Shown one piece after another: positions 2-10,659 of a DNA stretch of 64,000 nt (its first letter is position 1; every line of letters begins with the position of its first letter). The notes beneath the pieces were generated by a model. That model was not told the origin of the DNA. It did not search any database and saw only the letters and a program-made list of their open reading frames with translations. The stretch spans positions 4,673 to 68,672 of the forward strand of contig JAQXIT010000103.1 in NCBI GenBank assembly GCA_029007925.1, written 5' to 3'. This stretch comes from Bacillota bacterium (GTDB lineage Bacteria > Bacillota > Clostridia > Oscillospirales > Oscillospiraceae). A program made the position numbers and the translations under genes.

Positions 2-1288
2 GCCCGTTTTGTGGACGAGACAAAATGCACCGGCTGCGGCCTCTGCACCGAAAAATGCCCCCAGAAGAAGGTTCCCAACGAATTCAATCTGGGGCTGGAC
101 AACCGGCGCGCCATCTACATCCCCTTCGCCCAGGCGGTGCCGAAGGTGGCCACCATCGACGCGGACTACTGCTCCATGCTAAAAACCGGCAAGTGCGGCG
201 TCTGCTCCAAGGTCTGCACCGCCGGTGCCATCGACTACAAGCAGCAGGATACCTTCCTGGAGGAGGAATACGGCGCCATCGTGGTTGCCACGGGCTTCAA
301 TCCCATCAAGCTGGACAAATTCGATGAGTTTGCCTATTCCCAGAGCAAGGATGTGGTCACCTCTCTGGAGTTTGAGCGGCTGATGAACGCCGCCGGCCCC
401 ACCGGCGGCACTCTGCTGCGCCCCTCCGACGGCACCCATCCCAAGACCATCGTCTTTGTCCAGTGCGTCGGCTCCCGGTGCGACGACAGCAAGGGCAAGC
501 CCTACTGTTCCAAGATCTGCTGTATGTACACCGCCAAGCACGCCATGCTGTGCCGGGAAAAGTACCCCGACACCGACGTGTATGTGTTCTATATCGACGT
601 CCGCACCCCGGGCAAGAATTTTGACGAATTCTACCGCCGGGCGGTGGAGGAGTACGGTGTCCACTATATCAAGGGTATGGTGGGCAAGGTGGTGCCGGAA
701 AACGGCAAGCTGAAGGTTCAGGCTTCCGATCTGCTGGGAGGCAGACAGCTCCATATCGATGCCGATATGGTGGTGCTGGCCGCCGCCATCGAACCGGACG
801 AAAGCGCGAGGCCCCTGGCCACCATGCTGACCGCCTCCATGGACACCAACGACTTTTTCACCGAGGCACACCCCAAGCTGCGTCCCGTGGAGAGTCCCAC
901 GGCGGGCATTTTCCTGTCCGGCGCCTGCCAGGGCCCCAAGGACATCCCGGAAACGGTAGCTCAGGCCAGCGCGGCGGCGGCCAAGGTCATCGGTCTGCTG
1001 TGCAAGGATCAGCTCGTGTGCAATCCCTGCGTGGCCCAGCCCGATGAGCTGATGTGCAACGGCTGCAGCAGCTGTGAAAAGGTCTGTCCCTACGGCGCCA
1101 TCACTTACATCAACAAGGAATTCCGCGGCCCCAACCGCACCACGCTGCTGCGCCGGGTGGCGCAGGTCAACGGGGCGGTGTGTCAGGGCTGCGGTGCCTG
1201 TACCGTTGCCTGCCCCTCCGGCGCCATGGATCTGAAGGGCTTCAGCAACAAGCAAATTATGGCGGAGGTGGACGCGATATGCCGGTAA
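2..1288 (+). CDS. hdrA: Heterodisulfide reductase subunit A (HdrA), 5'-truncated by window edge
   Basis: CTGCGLC..C ferredoxin insert, VVATGF FAD motif, QCVGSR and YCSKICCM cluster motifs, GACQGPKDIP, two C-terminal CxxCxxCxxxCP motifs; frame open from base 2. Confidence 0.95.
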   Translation, partial: ARFVDETKCTGCGLCTEKCPQKKVPNEFNLGLDNRRAIYIPFAQAVPKVATIDADYCSMLKTGKCGVCSKVCTAGAIDYKQQDTFLEEEYGAIVVATGFNPIKLDKFDEFAYSQSKDVVTSLEFERLMNAAGPTGGTLLRPSDGTHPKTIVFVQCVGSRCDDSKGKPYCSKICCMYTAKHAMLCREKYPDTDVYVFYIDVRTPGKNFDEFYRRAVEEYGVHYIKGMVGKVVPENGKLKVQASDLLGGRQLHIDADMVVLAAAIEPDESARPLATMLTASMDTNDFFTEAHPKLRPVESPTAGIFLSGACQGPKDIPETVAQASAAAAKVIGLLCKDQLVCNPCVAQPDELMCNGCSSCEKVCPYGAITYINKEFRGPNRTTLLRRVAQVNGAVCQGCGACTVACPSGAMDLKGFSNKQIMAEVDAICR

Positions 1289-1719
1289 ACGAAGAATTCA
1301 AGCCTACCATCGTGGCGTTCTGCTGCAACTGGTGTTCCTACGCCGGTGCCGACCTGTCCGGCACCAACCGGCTGCAGTATCCAGCCAATGTCAAGATTAT
1401 CCGGATTCCCTGCTCCTGCCGCCTGAACCCCATGTTCATCCTGCGGGCCTTCCAGCGGGGCGCCGACGGCGTGATCCTCTGCGGCTGCCATCCCGGCGAC
1501 TGCCACTACACCACCGGCAACTATTACGCCCGCCGCCGGATGACCCTGCTGTTCTCCATGCTGGACTATCTGGGAATCGAGCGGGAGCGCACCCGGGTGG
1601 AGTGGGTATCCGCCGCCGAGGGCGCCAAGTTCGCCGCCACCATGAACGAGTTTGCCGGGACGGTCACCAAGCTGGGGCCGAACCGGAGATTGGAGGATCT
1701 GCGATGCAGGAAAGAGTAA
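1279..1719 (+). CDS. flxD: MvhD/FlxD [2Fe-2S] subunit
   Basis: FCCNWCSYAGAD, RIPCSCR and GCHPGDCHY MvhD signatures; ATG at 1279 after GGAGG, overlapping the hdrA stop. Confidence 0.93.
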   Translation: MPVNEEFKPTIVAFCCNWCSYAGADLSGTNRLQYPANVKIIRIPCSCRLNPMFILRAFQRGADGVILCGCHPGDCHYTTGNYYARRRMTLLFSMLDYLGIERERTRVEWVSAAEGAKFAATMNEFAGTVTKLGPNRRLEDLRCRKE

Positions 1720-2678
1720 AGCAGAAGGCCATCGAGCTTCTGGAAAATGGCACGGTTGACCGGGTTCTCGGTTGGAAAACCGGCGAGTTTTTCTACGATC
1801 TGACCCCCGCGGTGTTCACCTCCCGGGAGGAAGCGGAGACAAATTTCGTATTCAGCGCCTTCTCCGGGGCCAACCTCAGTAAATACTTGATCGCGGAATC
1901 CCGGAAGGGCGGCAAGGTGGCCGTGTTTCTGAAGCCCTGCGATTCCTATTCCTTCACCCAGCTCCTGAAGGAGCACCGGATCTGGCGGGAGAATGTCTAT
2001 GCCGTGGGCGTGCAATGCGACGGAATGTGCGACGCGGAAAAGCTTCGGGATGCCGGCTGCGAGGGTATCCTCTCCGTCCGGGAGGAGGGGGAGAACCTGA
2101 TCGTCGGAACCCTGTACGGCGAAAAAACCGTGGCCCGGAAGGATGCCCTGCTGGAGCGCTGCACCGTCTGCAAGAGTAAGAAAATCGTCACCTTCGACGA
2201 GCTGATCGGAGAAAACGGCGAGGAGCTGGATTCCGATCGCTTCGCGGAAGTGGCGAGGCTGGAGGCAATGACTCCCGAGGAGCGGTTTGACTTCTGGCGG
2301 GGCGAGCTGTCCCGGTGTATCCGCTGCAACGCCTGCCGCAATGTGTGCCCCGCCTGCAGCTGCGAGAAGTGCGTGTTCGACAACGCGGATTCCGGCGTCC
2401 GGAATAAGGCCGCCGCCGATTCCTTCGAGGAAAAGCTGTTCCACATTATCCGGGCCTTCCATGTGGCCGGGCGCTGTACCGACTGCGGCGAATGCAGCCG
2501 GGTCTGCCCCCAGCATATTCCGCTGCACCTGCTGAACCGGAAGTTCATCAAGGATATCAACGAGCTCTACGGAACCTATCAGGCCGGCGCGGATCCGGAG
2601 ACAAAGCCGCCGCTGACGGATTACACCGTTTCCGACTGCGAGCCTTCCGTCGTGTACGAAAGGGGAGGGAAGCCGTGA
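1704..2678 (+). CDS. flxC: FlxC-like 4Fe-4S dicluster protein
   Basis: KPCD motif, CIRCNACRNVCPACSC, HVAGRCTDCGECSRVCP; position after flxD; GGAGG before ATG 1704. Confidence 0.85.
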   Translation: MQERVKQKAIELLENGTVDRVLGWKTGEFFYDLTPAVFTSREEAETNFVFSAFSGANLSKYLIAESRKGGKVAVFLKPCDSYSFTQLLKEHRIWRENVYAVGVQCDGMCDAEKLRDAGCEGILSVREEGENLIVGTLYGEKTVARKDALLERCTVCKSKKIVTFDELIGENGEELDSDRFAEVARLEAMTPEERFDFWRGELSRCIRCNACRNVCPACSCEKCVFDNADSGVRNKAAADSFEEKLFHIIRAFHVAGRCTDCGECSRVCPQHIPLHLLNRKFIKDINELYGTYQAGADPETKPPLTDYTVSDCEPSVVYERGGKP

Positions 2679-3700
2679 TGAAAACAATTGCCATTTCTGA
2701 GCTGAACCGCCTCTTTGAAGCCATTTCCGGCGGCAGAAAGCTGTACATCCCGGCGGAGGACGGCGCCGGCCAGGCCAAATTCACCCCCTGGCGTGATGGC
2801 CTGAAGCTGACCGATAAGCTGAACACCGTCCGAAGCGCCAAGGATCTGTTCTTCCCCCAGGTGGAGAACCTGGTGAATTTCAAGGTCACCGGCAAGCAGA
2901 TCGAGATCATCGAAAACCGGGACATCAGCGAGCCATTCGCGGTATTCGGTGTCCGCGGCTGCGACTGCCGCAGCTTCGACATTCTGGACCGGGTGTTCCT
3001 CAGCGACCCGGTGGATACCTACTATCAGACCCGGCGGGAAAACGGCCTGGTTATCACGCTGGCCTGCACCCGCCCTGCCGAGACCTGTTTCTGCGGCACC
3101 TTCGGCATCGACCCGGCCAGCCCCGGGGGAGACGTAACCTGCTGGATGGAGGGGGATGCCCTCTACTGGCAGGCCAATACGGAAAAAGGCAAGGCACTGA
3201 CCGCCGAGCTCCCCATGCTGCGAGACTGTGGTGAGGAAGCCGTGGAGACGCAGAAAACCCGGATCCGCGGGGCGCTGGAGAAGCTGCCCCTGCGGGATCT
3301 GGATCTGACGGGCTTCGACGGCGAGCATATGCAGACGTTGTTCCGCAGCGAAAAGTGGGCGGAGCTGTCGGAAAGCTGCCTTGGCTGCGGCACCTGTACC
3401 TTTGTCTGCCCCACCTGCCAGTGCTACGACGTGCAGGAGTTCAACACCGGCACCGAAGTCAAGCGCTTCCGCTGCTGGGACAGCTGTATGTATTCCGACT
3501 TTACCCAGATGTCCGCGGGGCAGCCCAGACCCACCCAGAAGGAACGGTTCCGCCAGCGCTTCATGCACAAGCTGGTGTATTTTCCCAGCAATAACCACGG
3601 AATCTACGGCTGCGTGGGCTGCGGACGGTGCCTGCAGAAATGTCCCATCCATATGAACATCGTCAAGGTGGCACGGACGCTGAAGGAGGAGATGAAATGA
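2678..3700 (+). CDS. flxB: FlxB (AsrA-like) 4Fe-4S protein
   Basis: GVRGCD, TCFC, CLGCGTCTFVCPTCQC, WDSC, GCVGCGRC..CP; TGATG coupling to the upstream gene. Confidence 0.88.
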   Translation: MKTIAISELNRLFEAISGGRKLYIPAEDGAGQAKFTPWRDGLKLTDKLNTVRSAKDLFFPQVENLVNFKVTGKQIEIIENRDISEPFAVFGVRGCDCRSFDILDRVFLSDPVDTYYQTRRENGLVITLACTRPAETCFCGTFGIDPASPGGDVTCWMEGDALYWQANTEKGKALTAELPMLRDCGEEAVETQKTRIRGALEKLPLRDLDLTGFDGEHMQTLFRSEKWAELSESCLGCGTCTFVCPTCQCYDVQEFNTGTEVKRFRCWDSCMYSDFTQMSAGQPRPTQKERFRQRFMHKLVYFPSNNHGIYGCVGCGRCLQKCPIHMNIVKVARTLKEEMK

Positions 3701-4521
3701 GACCCGATCCCCTGATTCCCATGCTGGGCGTGGTAACCGCCATCCGCACGGACACGCCGGATGTCAAAACCTTCCGTGTCACGGGTGTGGACGGGAAAAA
3801 GCCCTTCGTCCACATCCCCGGCCAATGCGCCATGCTGTCCATCCCCGGAGTGGGGGAGGCGCTGTTTTCCATCACCTCCTCGCCCACGGAGGATTATCTG
3901 GACTTTTCCATCAAAAAGTGCGGCTGCGTCACCGCGTGGCTCCACCAGATGGAGGTGGGGCAGCAGATCACCATCCGGGGTCCCTACGGCAACGGCTTCC
4001 CGGTGGACACGGAGCTGGCAGGGAAGGATCTGCTGTTTATTGCCGGCGGCATCGGCCTGGCGCCGCTGCACTCCGTCATCAACTACTGCCGCCATTACCG
4101 GGATCGCTACGGCAGCATTGATATCGTCTACGGCTCCCGCAGCAAGGCGGATCTGGTGGACTTCCCGGAGATTACAGACGAGTGGTGCCGGGAGGAGGGC
4201 ATCCGTGTCCACCTGACCATCGACAACGCTCAGCCCGACTGGGACGGTCATGTGGGCTTCGTGCCCAACTTCGTCAAGGAGCTGAATTTTGACACTTCCA
4301 AGACCGTGCTGATGTGCGGCCCTCCCATCATGATTAAATTCACGCTGGCGGGGCTCATGGAACTGGGCTTCTCCCGGGAACAGATCTACACCACCATGGA
4401 GCTGCGGATGAAATGCGCTCTGGGCAAGTGCGGACGCTGCAACATCGGCAACAAGTACGTCTGCAAGGACGGCCCGGTGTTCCGCTTCGATCAGCTTGAC
4501 CAACTGCCCGACGAGTATTAA
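3697..4521 (+). CDS. flxA: FlxA (AsrB/PyrK-like) FAD/NAD(H)-binding [2Fe-2S] subunit
   Basis: PGQ, RGPYGNGF, AGGIGLAP, CGPPIM, MKCALGKCGRC..VCKDGPVF; ATGA overlap. Confidence 0.92.
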   Translation: MRPDPLIPMLGVVTAIRTDTPDVKTFRVTGVDGKKPFVHIPGQCAMLSIPGVGEALFSITSSPTEDYLDFSIKKCGCVTAWLHQMEVGQQITIRGPYGNGFPVDTELAGKDLLFIAGGIGLAPLHSVINYCRHYRDRYGSIDIVYGSRSKADLVDFPEITDEWCREEGIRVHLTIDNAQPDWDGHVGFVPNFVKELNFDTSKTVLMCGPPIMIKFTLAGLMELGFSREQIYTTMELRMKCALGKCGRCNIGNKYVCKDGPVFRFDQLDQLPDEY

Positions 4522-4533
4522 GGAGAAAAGACA

Positions 4534-5208
4534 ATGGAACAAATGGTTAATGTTTTCCTTTTCGGCAAGAAATATTCGGTTCCCGGAAGCCTCACCATCA
4601 TGGAGGCCATGGAATATGCCGGGTATCAGCTCGTCCGGGGCTGCGGCTGCCGGAACGGCTTCTGCGGCGCCTGCGCCACCATCTACCGCATCGCCGGCGA
4701 CCGGGAGCTGAAAACCTGCCTCGCCTGCTCCACCAAGGTGGAGGACAATATGTATGTGGCGACTCTGCCCTTCTTCCCGCTGGTGAAGCAGGTCTACGAT
4801 CTGGAGAAGATCAAGCCCACGGAGCAGATCATGATGCAGCTCTATCCGGAGATCTACGCCTGCGTGGGCTGCAACGCCTGCACCAAGGCCTGCACCCAGG
4901 GGCTGAATGTTATGCAGTACATCGCCTATGCCCAGCGGGGTGAGTATGAAAAGTGCGCCGAGGAGTCCTTCGACTGCGTCATGTGCGGCGTCTGCTCCTC
5001 CCGATGCCCCGCGGGAATTTCCCATCCTCAGGTGGCCATGCTGGCAAGACGGCTCAACGGCAAGTATCTGGCGCCCCATTGTGAGCATCTGGACGACCGG
5101 ATCCGGGAGATCAATGAGGGTAAGTACGAAAAGCTTCTGGAGGATCTGATGGGCAAGCCCCTCAGCGAAATGCAGGAGCTGTACAACCACCGGGACATCG
5201 AGAAATAA
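4534..5208 (+). CDS. SdhB/FrdB-like iron-sulfur protein
   Basis: N-terminal CGCRNGFCGAC...C [2Fe-2S] motif; CVGCNACTKAC and CVMCGVCSSRCP; AGGAG RBS. Confidence 0.85.
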   Translation: MEQMVNVFLFGKKYSVPGSLTIMEAMEYAGYQLVRGCGCRNGFCGACATIYRIAGDRELKTCLACSTKVEDNMYVATLPFFPLVKQVYDLEKIKPTEQIMMQLYPEIYACVGCNACTKACTQGLNVMQYIAYAQRGEYEKCAEESFDCVMCGVCSSRCPAGISHPQVAMLARRLNGKYLAPHCEHLDDRIREINEGKYEKLLEDLMGKPLSEMQELYNHRDIEK

Positions 5209-5220
5209 GGAGGCGGCACC

Positions 5221-6819
5221 ATGTATCAGGATTTGTTTATGCAGGAATCCATCCGCAAGGTGGAGGCTGCCCGGCAGGCCAATATGAAGCTGGATCCCCG
5301 GCGCATGACCGCCGAGGAGAAGGATGTTCTTCTGAAAACCTATCATCCCGACTATCGGGAGGAGCAGTTCGTGAATCTGTCCTTTGGCCCCAACGCGGGG
5401 CAGAAGGTTCCCGGGGAGCTGGCTGCGCTGCTGCAGGGCAGATCCCGGATTCTCGGCCGGGAAATCGATCTGGAGCATCCCGACTACGATACCGACGTTC
5501 TGATCGTCGGCGGCGGCGGTGCCGGCGCTTCGGCGGCCATTGAAGCCGATGAAAACGGTGCCCGTGTGATGATCGTCACCAAGCTGCGCATCGGCGACGC
5601 CAATACCATGATGGCGGAGGGCGGTATTCAGGCCGCCGACAAGCCCGGCGACAGTCCGGCGCAGCATTTTCTGGATGCCTATGGCGGCGGCCATTTCGCG
5701 GCCCAGAAGGATCTGCTGTACAAGCTGGTGACCGAGGCGCCGGAGGCCATCCGCTGGCTGTCTGAGCTGGGGGTGGAATTCGACAAAGCGCCCGACGGCA
5801 CCATGATTACCACCCACGGCGGCGGTACCTCCCGGAAGCGGATGCACGCCGCCAAGGATTACTCCGGCGCGGAGATCATGCGCACCCTCCGGGACGAGGT
5901 TCTGAACCGGGGCATTCCGGTGGTGGACTTCACCTCCGCCATCGAACTCATCAAGGATGAGAACGGCCGCTGTGCCGGCGCGGTGCTGATGAATATGGAG
6001 ACCAAAGAGCTGTTGGTCGCCCGGGCAAAAACCGTGATTCTCGCCACCGGCGGCGCGGGACGGCTCCACTATCAGGGTTTCCCCACCTCCAACCACTACG
6101 GCGCCACCGCCGACGGTCTGGTGCTGGCTTATCGGGCAGGCGCCCGGCTGCTGTATCCCGACACCCTGCAGTACCATCCCACCGGTGCCGCCTTCCCGGC
6201 GCAGATCTACGGCGCGCTGGTGACGGAAAAAGTGCGCTCCGTGGGCGCCATGCTGGTCAACGCCAACGGCGAGGTGTTCATGAACCCGCTGGAGACCCGT
6301 GACGTTTCCGCGGCGGCCATTATCCGGGAATGCTCCGACCGGGGCAACGGCGTTCCCACCCCGGAGGGGCAGGCGGTTTGGCTGGACACCCCAATGATCG
6401 AACTGAAGCACGGTGCCGGTACCATTGAGAAGCGGATCCCCGCCATGATGCGGATGTTCGCCAAGCACGGCATCGATATCCGCCGGGAGCCCATTCTGGT
6501 GTACCCCACGCTGCACTATCAGAACGGCGGCCTGAAGATTACCGACGACGGGCAGACCGACATCGAGAACCTGTATGCCGCCGGCGAGGTGGTAGGCGGC
6601 ATTCACGGCCGGAACCGGCTCATGGGCAACAGCCTGCTGGACATCATCGTTTTTGGCCGCAACGCGGGCAGACACGCCTCCGAAAAGGCAAAGCAAACGG
6701 AGCCGGGTCGCCTGACGCTGGCACATGTGGATGCCTTCGAAAAGCAGCGTGCCGAAGCCGGTATCACCGACGGCACCGTGTCCCCCAGACTGCTGCCGGA
6801 TTACACCAGAAAGAAGTAA
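5221..6819 (+). CDS. Fumarate reductase/succinate dehydrogenase-family flavoprotein (soluble, TfrA/NadB-like)
   Basis: GGGGAG dinucleotide fold, AEGGI, LATGG, QYHPT, TEKVR, TRD, HYQNGG, HGRNRLMGNSL. Confidence 0.88.
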   Translation: MYQDLFMQESIRKVEAARQANMKLDPRRMTAEEKDVLLKTYHPDYREEQFVNLSFGPNAGQKVPGELAALLQGRSRILGREIDLEHPDYDTDVLIVGGGGAGASAAIEADENGARVMIVTKLRIGDANTMMAEGGIQAADKPGDSPAQHFLDAYGGGHFAAQKDLLYKLVTEAPEAIRWLSELGVEFDKAPDGTMITTHGGGTSRKRMHAAKDYSGAEIMRTLRDEVLNRGIPVVDFTSAIELIKDENGRCAGAVLMNMETKELLVARAKTVILATGGAGRLHYQGFPTSNHYGATADGLVLAYRAGARLLYPDTLQYHPTGAAFPAQIYGALVTEKVRSVGAMLVNANGEVFMNPLETRDVSAAAIIRECSDRGNGVPTPEGQAVWLDTPMIELKHGAGTIEKRIPAMMRMFAKHGIDIRREPILVYPTLHYQNGGLKITDDGQTDIENLYAAGEVVGGIHGRNRLMGNSLLDIIVFGRNAGRHASEKAKQTEPGRLTLAHVDAFEKQRAEAGITDGTVSPRLLPDYTRKK

Positions 6820-6834
6820 AAGGAGAGAACCGCC

Positions 6835-7122
6835 ATGGAATTTCTGCCTGAATTATTGGAAACGCTGATGATTGTCAGCTTCGGCATTTCCTGGCCCGTG
6901 AATCTGGCAAAAGCCATAAAAAGCCGATCCACCAAGGGCAAGAGCATTCTGTTTGACTTTTTCATTTTGTTCGGTTATATCTGCGGAATCCTGTCCAAAG
7001 CCATGACCCATACCTACAATCTGGCGTTCTGGTTCTATTTCCCCAATCTGATTATGGTCACCGCCGATATCGTGCTGTATTATCGCAACCGCGCGCTGGA
7101 AAGACGCTGCCCGCAGCAATAA
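6835..7122 (+). CDS. PQ-loop/SemiSWEET-like 3-TM membrane protein
   Basis: 95 aa, three hydrophobic segments, SWP..KSRSTKGKS loop; AGGAG RBS. Confidence 0.75.
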   Translation: MEFLPELLETLMIVSFGISWPVNLAKAIKSRSTKGKSILFDFFILFGYICGILSKAMTHTYNLAFWFYFPNLIMVTADIVLYYRNRALERRCPQQ

Positions 7123-7127
7123 GAATG

Positions 7128-7156
7128 TTGCTTTCCGGTAGAATTTGTGATATGAT
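7128..7156 (+). promoter_or_regulatory. sigmaA-like promoter for the aldolase gene
   Basis: TTGCTT-17 nt-TATGAT with TGn extension. Confidence 0.55.
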
Positions 7157-7195
7157 AAATTTACCGGATTCTGAAATCGGGAAGGAGATTGCAAT

Positions 7196-8488
7196 ATGAA
7201 TATCAATTACATTCATCCGGCAGATCAGTTGGTTATGTTCATGCAGCGCATCTACGACAAGGGAATGACCACCACCTCCGGCGGCAACCTGTCCATCATG
7301 GATGACGACGGAAATATCTGGATTACTCCCGCCAGCGTGGACAAGGGTACTCTGACAAGACACGACATTATTTGCGTCAAGCCCGACGGCACCTGCGTAG
7401 GCTCCCACAAGCCGTCCTCCGAGCTGCCCTTCCATGCGGCGGTCTATCGGATGCGTCCGGATCTTCGGGCAGTTCTGCACGCCCATCCGCCGGCACTGGT
7501 TTCCTTCTCCATCGTGCGGCAGCTTCCGGATCTGGATCTGCTGCCCTCCGTCCGCAAGGTCTGTCCGGAACTGCGGATCGCGGTGTATGCCGTTCCCGGC
7601 AGCGACAAGCTGGGCGAGAACATCGCGGCCTGCTTTGCCGACAACTGCGATATCGCGCTGCTGGAAAACCACGGCGTGTGCATCGGCGCCAAGACCATGT
7701 TCGAGGCCTTCCAGAAGTTTGAGACTCTGGAGTACACCGCCAATCTGGAAATCCTGGCAAAGCGGATCGGCAAGGTTCATCGTCTGCCCGCCGAGGCGCT
7801 GCGGGTGACGGAGACCACCACCCATCTGAAGATGGATGATTTCATCCCCAACAGCCATTCCTCCGAGGAACTGGCTGCTCGCCGGGATATGATTACCCTG
7901 ATCCGGCGCTCCTACCGACAGGGACTCTTCACCGCCACCCATGGCACCTATTCCGTCCGGCTGTCCGACGGCAGCTTCCTGATTACGCCCTTCGGAATGG
8001 ATCGGGCCTATCTGGAGGAGGACAATCTGGTGCGGGTCAAGGCTGGCATGAAGGAGCTGGGCAAGATACCCTCCCGGGCTGTGGGGCTGCATCAGAAGAT
8101 CTACGAGGCCAATCCGGAGATTCGAGCCATTCTGCTGGCGCATCCCGTTCACGCCATGGCCTTCGCGGTGACCGATACCAAATTCGATCCCAGAACCATT
8201 CCCGAAAGCTATATCCTGCTGCGGGATGTGAAGCGCCTGCCATACGGCGAGATCTACACCCAGCAGGAAAAGACCGCCAAAGAGTTTACCGAAGCCTGCC
8301 CCGCCGTCATGGTGGACAACGACTGCGTCATTGTCACCGGTGAGAGCCTGCTGAAGGCTTTCGACCGGCTGGAGGTTCTGGAATCCACGGCACATTCCAT
8401 CATCAACTCCAGCGCCATCGGCAGCATTGTCCATATCACCCAGGAGGAAGTGGAGGATCTGAAGGTGGCCTTCAACCTGAAGGACTGA
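7196..8488 (+). CDS. Class II aldolase/adducin family protein with two tandem domains
   Basis: Domain 1: GGNLS, TP, PSSELPFH, HAHP, NHG. Domain 2 repeats the pattern in degenerate form (GTYS, TP, PSR..LH, LAHP). Confidence 0.88.
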   Translation: MNINYIHPADQLVMFMQRIYDKGMTTTSGGNLSIMDDDGNIWITPASVDKGTLTRHDIICVKPDGTCVGSHKPSSELPFHAAVYRMRPDLRAVLHAHPPALVSFSIVRQLPDLDLLPSVRKVCPELRIAVYAVPGSDKLGENIAACFADNCDIALLENHGVCIGAKTMFEAFQKFETLEYTANLEILAKRIGKVHRLPAEALRVTETTTHLKMDDFIPNSHSSEELAARRDMITLIRRSYRQGLFTATHGTYSVRLSDGSFLITPFGMDRAYLEEDNLVRVKAGMKELGKIPSRAVGLHQKIYEANPEIRAILLAHPVHAMAFAVTDTKFDPRTIPESYILLRDVKRLPYGEIYTQQEKTAKEFTEACPAVMVDNDCVIVTGESLLKAFDRLEVLESTAHSIINSSAIGSIVHITQEEVEDLKVAFNLKD

Positions 8489-8503: not shown

Positions 8504-8539
8504 AGGACAGCGCTTCCAAAAGGAAGCGCTGTCCTTTTT
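8504..8539 (+). terminator. Intrinsic terminator
   Basis: AGGACAGCGCTTCC-AAAA-GGAAGCGCTGTCCT followed by a T run. Confidence 0.88.
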
Positions 8540-9010: not shown

Positions 9011-9934
9011 TCAGATGGTGATGCCGGCCTTGTCAAGAATGGTGGGGACGTTCTTCTCCGCACCGATGGCCATGATGTGGACACCGTCGCACAGATGCTC
9101 GTCCCGGATCCGGGCGATCATTTCGGCGGCCATTTCGATGCCGAGCTGCATGGGCAGGCCCTTGACGCCCTTCTCCTTGCCCTCGGCGGCGGCAGCGGCC
9201 AGACGGTCGATCATGTGCTGGGGCACATCGATGCCGGGCACGTTCTCGTTCATGTACTTGGCCATACCGGCGGACTTCAGGGGGATGATGCCGGCCATGA
9301 TGTGGGTCTTGATGCCCATCATGTCCACCATATCCAGGAATTTCTTGAAGGTGTCCAGATCGAAAATACCCTGGGTCTGGATGTACATGGCGCCGCTTTC
9401 CACTTTCTGACGCAGCTTGTTGATCTGCAGGAAGATAGGCTCGTAGACGGGAGTGACCGCGGCACCCTTGTAGAACTTGGGAGCGCCGCCTGCCAGCTCA
9501 TTGCCGCCGCAGTCGCAGCCGGTCTGCTCCATTTTGGTCAGCATTTTCAGAATGCCAACGGAGTCCAGATCGTAGACGGGCTTGGCATCCTGGCAGTCGC
9601 CCACGATGGGGTGGTCGCCGGTGAGCGCCAGCATGGTGTCGATGCCGAAGCTGGCGGCGGAGAGAATGTCGCCCATGATGGCCATGCGGTTGCGGTCACG
9701 GCCGGTGACCTGCAGGATGGGGTCAATGCCCGCCTGCTTCAGCTTGACGCACAGACCGAGGCCGGAGGCCTTCAGGCTGGCGGACTGCATATCGGTGACG
9801 TTGACGGCATGAACCTTGCCCCGCAGAAGCTCAGCGGCTTCCAGAGGCTCGGAAAAATCAAAACCCTTGGGAGGTGCCATTTCGGCGGTGATGCCGAACT
9901 TACCGGATTCCAGTGCGTCTCTCAGATTACTCAT
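9011..9934 (-). CDS. metF: Methylenetetrahydrofolate reductase MetF
   Basis: EMAPPK, NVTD, GRDRNR, LALTGD, QTQ, GIIP, GVHIM motifs. Confidence 0.93.
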   Translation of the reverse strand: MSNLRDALESGKFGITAEMAPPKGFDFSEPLEAAELLRGKVHAVNVTDMQSASLKASGLGLCVKLKQAGIDPILQVTGRDRNRMAIMGDILSAASFGIDTMLALTGDHPIVGDCQDAKPVYDLDSVGILKMLTKMEQTGCDCGGNELAGGAPKFYKGAAVTPVYEPIFLQINKLRQKVESGAMYIQTQGIFDLDTFKKFLDMVDMMGIKTHIMAGIIPLKSAGMAKYMNENVPGIDVPQHMIDRLAAAAAEGKEKGVKGLPMQLGIEMAAEMIARIRDEHLCDGVHIMAIGAEKNVPTILDKAGITI

Positions 9935-10584
9935 TACTTCTTCCCCCTCAAGCTGATGGTTCTGGGATAGGACACCTTGGAATAGCCCTTGTCCTCACGG
10001 GTCTCGGTCAGCTTTTCCAACTGGCCGGTGGCTTCCAGCCGCTTGTAGATCTTGATCCACGCACAGTCGTTCTCGGGATTGACCTCGCACTTGCCGTTCT
10101 TCTGGCCGCCGCAGGGGCCGTTGACCAAGCTCTTGGCACACTGGGTAATGGGGCAGACGGCACCGGTCTGACCCAGCACGCAATCGCCGCAGAGGTGGCA
10201 GGCTTCTTCCCACACACCGAAGCGGACGGCTTCACCCAGATACATGGTGTTGTTGGAGGGGTAAACGGGAATGTTGCCGGCGTTTTTGGCGACGCACTGG
10301 ACGCCGTCGCCGCAGGACATGGTGATGACGCAGTCAGGCTTAGCCGCGACCAGGGGCTTCATTTTGCCGCGGACGCCCAGACTCATGCAGCAGTAGTCCG
10401 CCACGGTGGTGGCGACGACCTTTTTGCCGGCTTGTTCCAGAACGGTGGTCAGCTCGGCAATCTGAGCTTCGCCGCCGGTTTGGCAGGCGGTGGCACAGCT
10501 TCCGCAGCCGATGATTGCCACAGTTTTGGCATCGCCGACCATTGCCATCACTTCTTCGATGGGTTTCTTTTGAGTAATAATCAT
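9934..10584 (-). CDS. metV: MetV (MTHFR Fe-S/FMN subunit)
   Basis: GCGSCATACQTGG, CGDG, CHLCGDC, CPITQCAKSLVNGPCGG, CEV..CAW; TAATG coupling to metF; AAGGAG before ATG 10584. Confidence 0.92.
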   Translation of the reverse strand: MIITQKKPIEEVMAMVGDAKTVAIIGCGSCATACQTGGEAQIAELTTVLEQAGKKVVATTVADYCCMSLGVRGKMKPLVAAKPDCVITMSCGDGVQCVAKNAGNIPVYPSNNTMYLGEAVRFGVWEEACHLCGDCVLGQTGAVCPITQCAKSLVNGPCGGQKNGKCEVNPENDCAWIKIYKRLEATGQLEKLTETREDKGYSKVSYPRTISLRGKK

Positions 10585-10659
10585 GGTGCGCTTCTCCTTC
10601 CGGTGTTCTAACGGTGGGATTTGCTGTTTTGTGGGATGACCCCACACATTCCATTTTCC

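Follow-up and report, generated by a model that had tools for sequence, protein, structure and literature searches.

The FlxABCD-HdrABC system of Desulfovibrio vulgaris was reportedly described by Ramos et al. in 2015 with DsrC as its proposed sink, and the methanogen thiol:fumarate reductase TfrAB is said, after Heim et al. in 1998, to be a soluble enzyme whose B subunit carries one [2Fe-2S] and two [4Fe-4S] clusters. Here, we analyzed a locus that resembles both systems in part: a 12-gene operon from a gut member of the Bacillota, in which a complete Hdr-Flx module sits between a fumarase gene (fumC) and a fumarate-reductase-like gene pair (frdBA). The window, that is the whole stretch of 64,000 nt, starts inside hdrA at G000:C103:4673 (L001 denotes C103 coordinates). 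The source genome assembly (G000) comprises 1.7 Mb and is 81% complete, and all genome-wide absences reported below are to be read against that completeness.

The same arrangement has been published for Pseudoclostridium thermosuccinogenes as a ‘succinate operon’ (CDQ83_RS03365-RS03315). In it, a fumarate hydratase gene is followed by seven Flx-Hdr genes, two genes for fumarate reductase and a small hypothetical gene for which a role in succinate transport was proposed (PMC7282089). The paper already states the same bifurcation hypothesis, citing Koendjbiharie & van Kranenburg (Preprints 2019), and those operon genes that its supplement lists are jointly upregulated 3- to 4-fold when CO2 is limiting. 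The likeness to our locus is one of gene order and lengths: frdA and frdB span about 1602 and 675 nt there and 1599 and 675 nt in our locus, and about 12 nt separate the two genes in either case. Differences are the gut origin of our organism, the malate-type dehydrogenase gene (mdh) heading its operon, and the size of the last gene (288 nt versus about 249 nt). For tubeworm symbionts and Thioflavicoccus, two further papers describe an Hdr-Flx-KorABCD-TfrAB cluster of the reductive tricarboxylic acid cycle, in which Hdr-Flx is proposed to deliver electrons both to a low-potential acceptor and to fumarate reduction, either directly or by a carrier (PMC6315080, PMC11636981); unlike here, the setting is autotrophic, with Kor and ACL. 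PMC6543838 contains no mention of fumarate. A biochemical demonstration of such coupling was not found in the literature searched, which left most subscription papers and the 2019 preprint outside. This agrees with a preceding interpretation made from the letters of this stretch (the sequence-only reading), which knew of no biochemical characterization; the novelty is weaker than that reading implied, since operon and hypothesis were already published for P. thermosuccinogenes and a comparable Tfr/Hdr-Flx coupling was proposed for the tubeworm symbionts. Judging from its genes, the locus appears to be a further member of an already proposed system, for which bifurcation is plausible.

All 12 genes lie on the + strand in the order mdh-fumC-hdrBCA-flxDCBA-frdB-frdA-PQ-loop gene, with gaps between -16 and +15 bp. 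Four of them precede the window on its contig, within 4.7 kb, namely mdh (C103 452-1399), fumC (C103 1412-2788), hdrB (C103 2796-3593) and hdrC (C103 3590-3961), and the gaps that follow each, in this order, are 12, 7, -4 and 10 nt. The next gene, hdrA (C103 3972-5960), enters the window with its 3' two thirds (2..1288), followed by flxD (1279..1719), flxC (1704..2678), flxB (2678..3700), flxA (3697..4521), frdB (4534..5208), frdA (5221..6819) and the small PQ-loop-like gene (6835..7122), at spacings of -10, -16, -1, -4, +12, +12 and +15. No terminator-like match was found in the intergenic gaps; L001 showed 14 such matches compared to 9.9 +/- 3.7 in shuffles, and those on the + strand lie inside genes. 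Each operon protein matched this contig alone within the assembly (E <= 1e-8). The open reading frames and their spacing thus reproduce the eight genes from hdrA to a small membrane gene, with overlaps followed by 12-15 bp gaps and no terminator, that the sequence-only reading had described. It had proposed looking upstream for hdrB and hdrC, and both are found directly upstream, along with fumC and mdh.

Considering all of this, we lean towards the view that the operon turns oxaloacetate into succinate while Hdr-Flx splits the electrons of NADH between ferredoxin and fumarate. What can be read off the DNA for this view is gene content, gene order, cofactor motifs and a predicted absence of membrane segments. 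Going by what is known of the protein families, Mdh and FumC would convert oxaloacetate via malate to fumarate, and FlxA would oxidize NADH and pass the electrons via FlxB/C and the [2Fe-2S] cluster of FlxD to the FAD of HdrA, where they would be bifurcated. The low-potential electrons would reach ferredoxin (Fd) and then Rnf or FeFe hydrogenase, and the high-potential electrons would run over HdrC/HdrB to the [4Fe-4S] pair of FrdB, its [2Fe-2S] cluster, the FAD of FrdA and finally fumarate; succinate would leave via the product of the last gene. The net reaction would be 2 NADH + fumarate + 2 Fd(ox) -> 2 NAD+ + succinate + 2 Fd(red). Taking midpoint potentials of -320 mV for NADH, +33 mV for fumarate and -420 to -500 mV for Fd, the coupled reaction is computed at about -49 to -33 kJ per turnover, which is downhill. 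Running the system in reverse in vivo, with succinate oxidized by confurcation, together with reduced ferredoxin, to NAD+, would be 33-49 kJ uphill by the same potentials. Hdr-Flx is reversible in principle, and for some members of the family across the phylum succinyl-CoA synthetase or Kor/Por genes are neighbours, but the close relatives of our locus include records of Ruminococcus flavefaciens, which is known for succinate production. In addition, PMC7282089 presents the bearer of the matching operon, P. thermosuccinogenes, as a succinate producer, and we regard reverse operation as extremely improbable.

The FrdA-like flavoprotein (532 aa, PF00890) yielded an AlphaFold model with a pLDDT of 88.8 and the complex II flavoprotein fold, with E. 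coli FrdA as the top match (TM 0.68). Based on alignment to solved Sdh/NadB chains, all six residues of the dicarboxylate site are kept: His319, Glu336, Arg360, His432 and Arg466 in 40/40 sequences and Thr335 in 38/40. At the position of the His that binds FAD covalently, 40/40 family members carry Asn (Asn128), and FAD is predicted to be bound non-covalently. The protein has an N-terminal extension of about 88 aa, for which the fold search gave no identification. Its partner FrdB (224 aa, Fer2 plus 4Fe-4S dicluster) contains a [2Fe-2S] motif, two complete [4Fe-4S] motifs, whose eight Cys are invariant in 38/38 sequences, and a helical tail. The FrdB model (pLDDT 88) showed weak fold matches to SdhB/FrdB (E ~1e-5, TM ~0.3, rmsd ~13) and to HdrC chains (E ~3e-3), which carry no information on docking. 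The pair therefore resembles quinol:fumarate reductase and complex II in fold and dicarboxylate-site residues, whereas it differs from them by having no anchor, no covalent-FAD His, no C-terminal PF02910 domain (not found anywhere in the source assembly either) and a second [4Fe-4S] motif instead of the [3Fe-4S] cluster that is canonical at that position in complex II. No membrane helix was predicted in any redox subunit by a Kyte-Doolittle scan, and the small gene is not a heme anchor, which is in line with the soluble, anchor-less pair seen in the sequence-only reading. Fumarate as the sink, likewise put forward there, is strengthened by fumC and the malate-type dehydrogenase gene at the head of the operon, by the kept catalytic residues and by C4 transporters that follow in relatives. 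We consider it very likely that FrdBA is a fumarate reductase. Protein searches for the size of the family returned 7987/7999 scored candidates at E <= 1e-100, whose names were uninformative, and a natural FrdB-FrdA fusion of the same family exists (P0123, 727 aa).

A flavoprotein of this fold could act on another substrate, which might be L-aspartate, as in NadB, or one of the larger alkenes, for example mesaconate, itaconate or aconitate. FrdA matches the NadB model with 287 bits against a cut-off of 453, the Phe that the Mycobacterium SdhA chain 7d6v_A has in the pocket is replaced by Gly200 (Gly in 36/40), and distant members with 51-56% identity are found beside PrpD, PrpF, aconitase or AtuA genes. 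On the other hand, the alignment places Gly where the ‘REGGH’ stretch of NadB has Glu, which we take to be the specificity residue, NadA was not found in the source genome, and a dedicated Fe-S partner is adjacent in 75/75 close loci, with fumC linked in 54/55. We rejected membership in NadB on the aligned Gly, the bit score and the missing NadA; these three results also disfavour the possibility, raised in the sequence-only reading as a refutation, that the flavoprotein acts only as L-aspartate oxidase. A substrate other than fumarate is, in our view, very improbable.

The Hdr-Flx module is complete as a cluster, comprising HdrA, HdrB, HdrC, an MvhD-like FlxD, two Fe-S subunits and an FAD/NAD-binding FlxA. 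HdrA (662 aa), the predicted bifurcating flavoprotein, is full-length and aligns end to end with the solved methanogen HdrA (5odc_A, E 2e-207); the NCBIfam HdrA models gave 598-795 bits, under their methanogen cut-offs. The residues aligned to Glu356 and Lys409 of 5odc, which presumably form the environment of the bifurcating FAD, are conserved. HdrB contains two CCG domains (PF02754 twice) with all 10 Cys invariant in 19/19 aligned sequences, and the motif set of 8 Cys in HdrC is invariant in 16/16. FlxD matches the [2Fe-2S] protein MvhD (PF02662, 185 bits; 5odc_D, E 1e-50). The Fe-S protein in FlxC position (324 aa, 4Fe-4S dicluster) is named by position and Fe-S motifs, and FlxB (340 aa, PF17179) is an AsrA/HydB-like Fe-S protein for which the ShyB/HydB/AsrA models remained below cut-off. 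FlxA, the predicted entry point of NADH, bears FAD-, NAD- and [2Fe-2S]-binding domains (PF00175, PF00970, PF10418). All seven subunit types of the Desulfovibrio FlxABCD-HdrABC are thus present, in the order hdrBCA-flxDCBA; different from that system, the module is placed between fumC and frdBA, and DsrC (PF04358) was not found in the source genome. As far as this 81%-complete genome shows, the Desulfovibrio-type sink is therefore unavailable. A NiFe hydrogenase large subunit (PF00374) is absent from the operon, as the sequence-only reading had remarked, and was not found genome-wide. We regard it as fairly probable that the system is truly bifurcating.

How the electrons would pass from HdrB to FrdB is the point at which the methanogen TfrAB becomes relevant. 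Our pair shares with it the soluble nature, the lack of the covalent-FAD His, the clusters of the B subunit, and TfrA as the best NCBIfam model for FrdA, yet this model scored 355 bits versus a cut-off of 718, FrdA lacks the C-terminal domain and has the N-terminal extension, and FrdB (224 aa) matched the TfrB model only at positions 19-98 of 488 and is without its CCG half. Because FrdB has no thiol-oxidising CCG domain (no PF02754), it is not a TfrB, and membership in TfrAB was rejected on this ground and on the TfrA score. The same net bifurcation could still run through a small thiol/disulfide carrier, with HdrABC reducing the disulfide and FrdBA-HdrB(C) re-oxidising the thiol as a split thiol:fumarate reductase. 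Besides the TfrA match, the ten invariant Cys of HdrB speak for such a shuttle, as does its top model, the SdhE anchor of 8-methylmenaquinol:fumarate reductase (145 bits versus 136 for HdrB, both far under cut-off). In two loci of the phylum (L149:2999-6625 and L151:3064-6669), hdrC-hdrB-frdB-frdA stand together while hdrA is missing from the vicinity, an arrangement that looks like a thiol:fumarate reductase distributed over four genes or a TfrB in parts; other HdrA genes occur elsewhere in those genomes. However, FrdB lacks the CCG domain, the single HdrB found in the source genome would need to perform both half-reactions, and neither a thiol-carrier gene in the operon nor DsrC in the genome was detected. 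We consider the carrier rather unlikely. The lack of a thiol-oxidising domain in FrdB and the single HdrB detected lead us to favour direct Fe-S wiring, in which HdrC/HdrB would probably hand the electrons to FrdB itself.

The relationship between the two modules was followed across the best 80 of at least 596 relatives among 600 stretches from GTDB genomes, picked by FrdA similarity; the fractions given for these close loci count only those with enough upstream DNA. Linkage was found for frdB in 75/75, flxA in 72/73, flxD in 65/66, hdrA in 56/57, hdrB in 55/56, fumC in 54/55 and mdh in 35/53 loci, and the order fumC-hdrBCA-flxDCBA-frdBA was intact in 53/55; of the other two, L096 lacks fumC and L088 lacks Hdr-Flx. 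A near-orthologue (E < 1e-240) was present in 13/40 relatives of the source genome, which points to a patchy distribution or to incomplete assemblies. In L088 (6278-11662), fumC-frdB-frdA is preceded by a DAO plus BFD-[2Fe-2S] flavoprotein, glycerol-3-phosphate dehydrogenase-like, which replaces Hdr-Flx, and by a divergent GntR-like gene. HdrA was not found in the genome of L088, and the DAO + BFD flavoprotein is a possible alternative electron donor.

Co-regulation without coupling would be another explanation for this synteny: Hdr-Flx and FrdBA would then be two redox valves in one Rex-type operon, and FrdBA would be fed by ferredoxin, flavin or a non-bifurcating path. Elsewhere, FrdBA indeed occurs beside cytochrome c or b561-like genes, the flavoprotein of L088, pyruvate carboxylase or none of these, and also in genomes in which HdrA was not found. 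This explanation would leave Hdr-Flx with no evident high-potential acceptor in the source genome, and it has to account for the position of Hdr-Flx between fumC and frdBA in the 53 close loci and for an adjacency that recurs in the opposite order; we judge it quite unlikely. It appears likely that FrdBA is fed by Flx-Hdr.

At the head of the operon, the top NCBIfam models for the malate-type dehydrogenase (PF00056/PF02866) are L-lactate dehydrogenases, yet 35/35 aligned relatives carry Arg at the specificity position, which we take to indicate malate. FumC is a class II fumarase above the equivalog cut-off of TIGR00979 (711 bits versus 665). A sigma-70-like promoter-like site is located at C103 325-353, about 100 nt ahead of mdh, followed by a Rex-like palindrome at about C103 358-375, 94 nt ahead of mdh. 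The palindrome agrees with 12/14 positions of a Rex consensus, a value reached by 0/100 shuffles in a partly post hoc test, the pattern having been loosened after the site had been seen. Across the loci, a site with at least 12/14 was present in 14/51 and a shuffle p <= 0.05 was reached in 15/51. As the genome also holds a Rex-family gene, there is modest support for NADH-linked (Rex-type) control of the operon. For oxaloacetate supply, a PF02436 carboxylase domain was the sole candidate seen in the source genome. Three RnfC genes above the curated cut-off (contigs C11, C81 and C44) and one FeFe hydrogenase could spend the reduced ferredoxin.

Beyond the close relatives, the FrdBA family was detected in 47/400 other sampled genomes of the phylum (about 12%; E <= 1e-90). 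From 50 matches, we fetched 40 in 37 genomes and extended four of them. The frdB gene is adjacent in 38/40, hdrB is near in 17/40 and hdrA in 15/40, and the complete Hdr-Flx set is linked in 8/40, four times in the order of our window and four times as frdBA-hdrBCA-flxDCBA. The latter loci (L175-L178) show about 55% identity, and in the three checked the cluster is followed by DcuC, DcuA/B or CoA transferase; an asparaginase gene lies nearby in L177. The synteny check suggested in the sequence-only reading therefore turned out well for the gut Clostridia, where linkage is nearly invariant, while it did not extend to the phylum as a whole. Neighbours encoding fumarase, malic enzyme, malate dehydrogenase, succinyl-CoA synthetase or Kor/Por occur in 24/40 by cluster tally, for which greedy picking of open reading frames missed some genes. 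Seven loci (L143, L144, L147, L163, L166, L171 and L173) place frdBA behind another set of hdr genes, made up of HdrB(C), two HdrA-type genes (the second one large, 1000-1500 aa) and genes for an MvhD-like and an Fe-S protein, with no FlxA; Kor/Por or succinyl-CoA synthetase genes follow. This variant is a candidate for another bifurcating or confurcating system. In L141, L155, L159 and L167, FrdBA adjoins genes for small cytochromes of the c type or for a membrane module of FMN-binding/4Fe-4S character, which suggests membrane-linked donors. Distant FrdA members in L168-L170, L156 and L160 have PrpD/MmgE, PrpF, aconitase or AtuA genes as neighbours and in some cases a 4Fe-4S/cytochrome b561 partner; they may reduce other alkenes, e.g. 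aconitate or methyl-branched C5 acids. Overall, FrdBA is a modular fumarate-type sink, and its partner in gut Clostridia is Hdr-Flx.

Several observations weigh against a coupled, bifurcating operon. In the phylum, 23/40 loci have no hdrB nearby and only eight hold the full Hdr-Flx set, and a search for HdrA gave no match in G187 or G434 (99% complete, E <= 1e-40), nor in G439, so FrdBA can draw on other electron donors. All 80 close loci are related and were chosen by FrdA similarity, so their counts are not independent. PEP carboxykinase was not found in the source genome, and only the 14 loci mentioned hold a Rex-like site of the given quality. At the protein level, the exchange of Phe for Gly200 may give FrdA a different pocket, and the ten kept Cys of HdrB would also suit a live thiol/disulfide site. 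We infer the coupling itself, meaning ferredoxin reduction and complex formation, from genes. Finally, according to the tubeworm studies, the expression of tfrAB in Endoriftia did not track the rest of the Hdr-Flx cluster (PMC6315080, PMC11636981).

With these points in mind, we put forward a wider proposal tentatively, as a joint claim that we hold to be possible but somewhat short of probable. The proteins would form a thiol-free, quinone-free complex of nine subunits, in which HdrC/HdrB wire the HdrA flavin to a distinct FrdBA family; many Clostridia of gut and rumen would use this complex as their main way of making succinate while conserving energy; and across the roughly 12% of sampled phylum genomes mentioned above, FrdBA would plug into other donors, namely HdrA-HdrA'-MvhD, HdrCB alone, cytochrome modules or the DAO + BFD flavoprotein. 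If bifurcation to fumarate is true, quinone-free fermenters of gut and rumen would gain reduced ferredoxin, and hence Rnf ion motive force or H2, per succinate formed. Models of ATP yield and hydrogen flow for succinate producers would change, and fumarate would join the high-potential sinks of Hdr-type bifurcation. The locus itself confirms the spread of the operon and points to cultured relatives, with records of Ruminococcus flavefaciens and Ruminococcus sp. YRD2003 among the close ones.

The last gene of the operon encodes a PQ-loop-like membrane protein of 95 aa, which is a candidate transporter. Where the sequence-only reading saw a 3-TM protein after frdA, a small membrane gene is indeed present, but its product shows two clear segments in the Kyte-Doolittle scan and contains one His only. 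The Atlas clusters group it with PQ-loop proteins (score 0.96), which serves as a lead only. In close loci, the slot after frdA is occupied by an AspT/YidE-family transporter in 53/76 (PF06826; one representative was checked by Pfam), by a PQ-loop protein in 14/76 and by GTP-dependent PEP carboxykinase (PEPCK) in 3/76. Since the slot is exchanged for other transporters in relatives, the small gene is best read as a transporter slot and not as an anchor. Its role as a membrane anchor of Frd was rejected on the single His, the PQ-loop likeness and the interchangeability with AspT/YidE. The product of the last gene likely exports succinate.

Part of the stretch was matched in 6 RNA runs, and the comparison used assembled contigs from 4 of 11 listed runs of 2 studies, labelled pig gut metatranscriptome. 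X1 RNA contigs span flxA/frdB (4373-4889; 36 differences in 517 letters, possibly from a relative), frdB/frdA (4974-5691), and frdA into the aldolase gene downstream of the operon (6073-8439, ending near the aldolase end); some upstream operon junctions are spanned as well, and taken together the contigs cover the operon. As these are assembled contigs with no DNA control, they do not prove one transcript. The aldolase gene (window 7196-8488), of class II with tandem domains, begins 73 nt past the operon, and a first obvious hairpin with a T run lies 3' of it at about window 8504-8539, spotted by eye and not listed by the terminator scanner. We count 12 genes to the operon, possibly with read-through into the aldolase gene as a 13th. 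A class II aldolase next to the operon was not found in the relatives checked, and the idea that the small membrane gene is a partner of the aldolase is unsupported, as no checked relative had both. About 2 kb downstream, a split MetF/MetV-type methylenetetrahydrofolate reductase pair (PF02219, PF12225) lies on the - strand (window 9011-10647); in some acetogens, MetFV partners Hdr.

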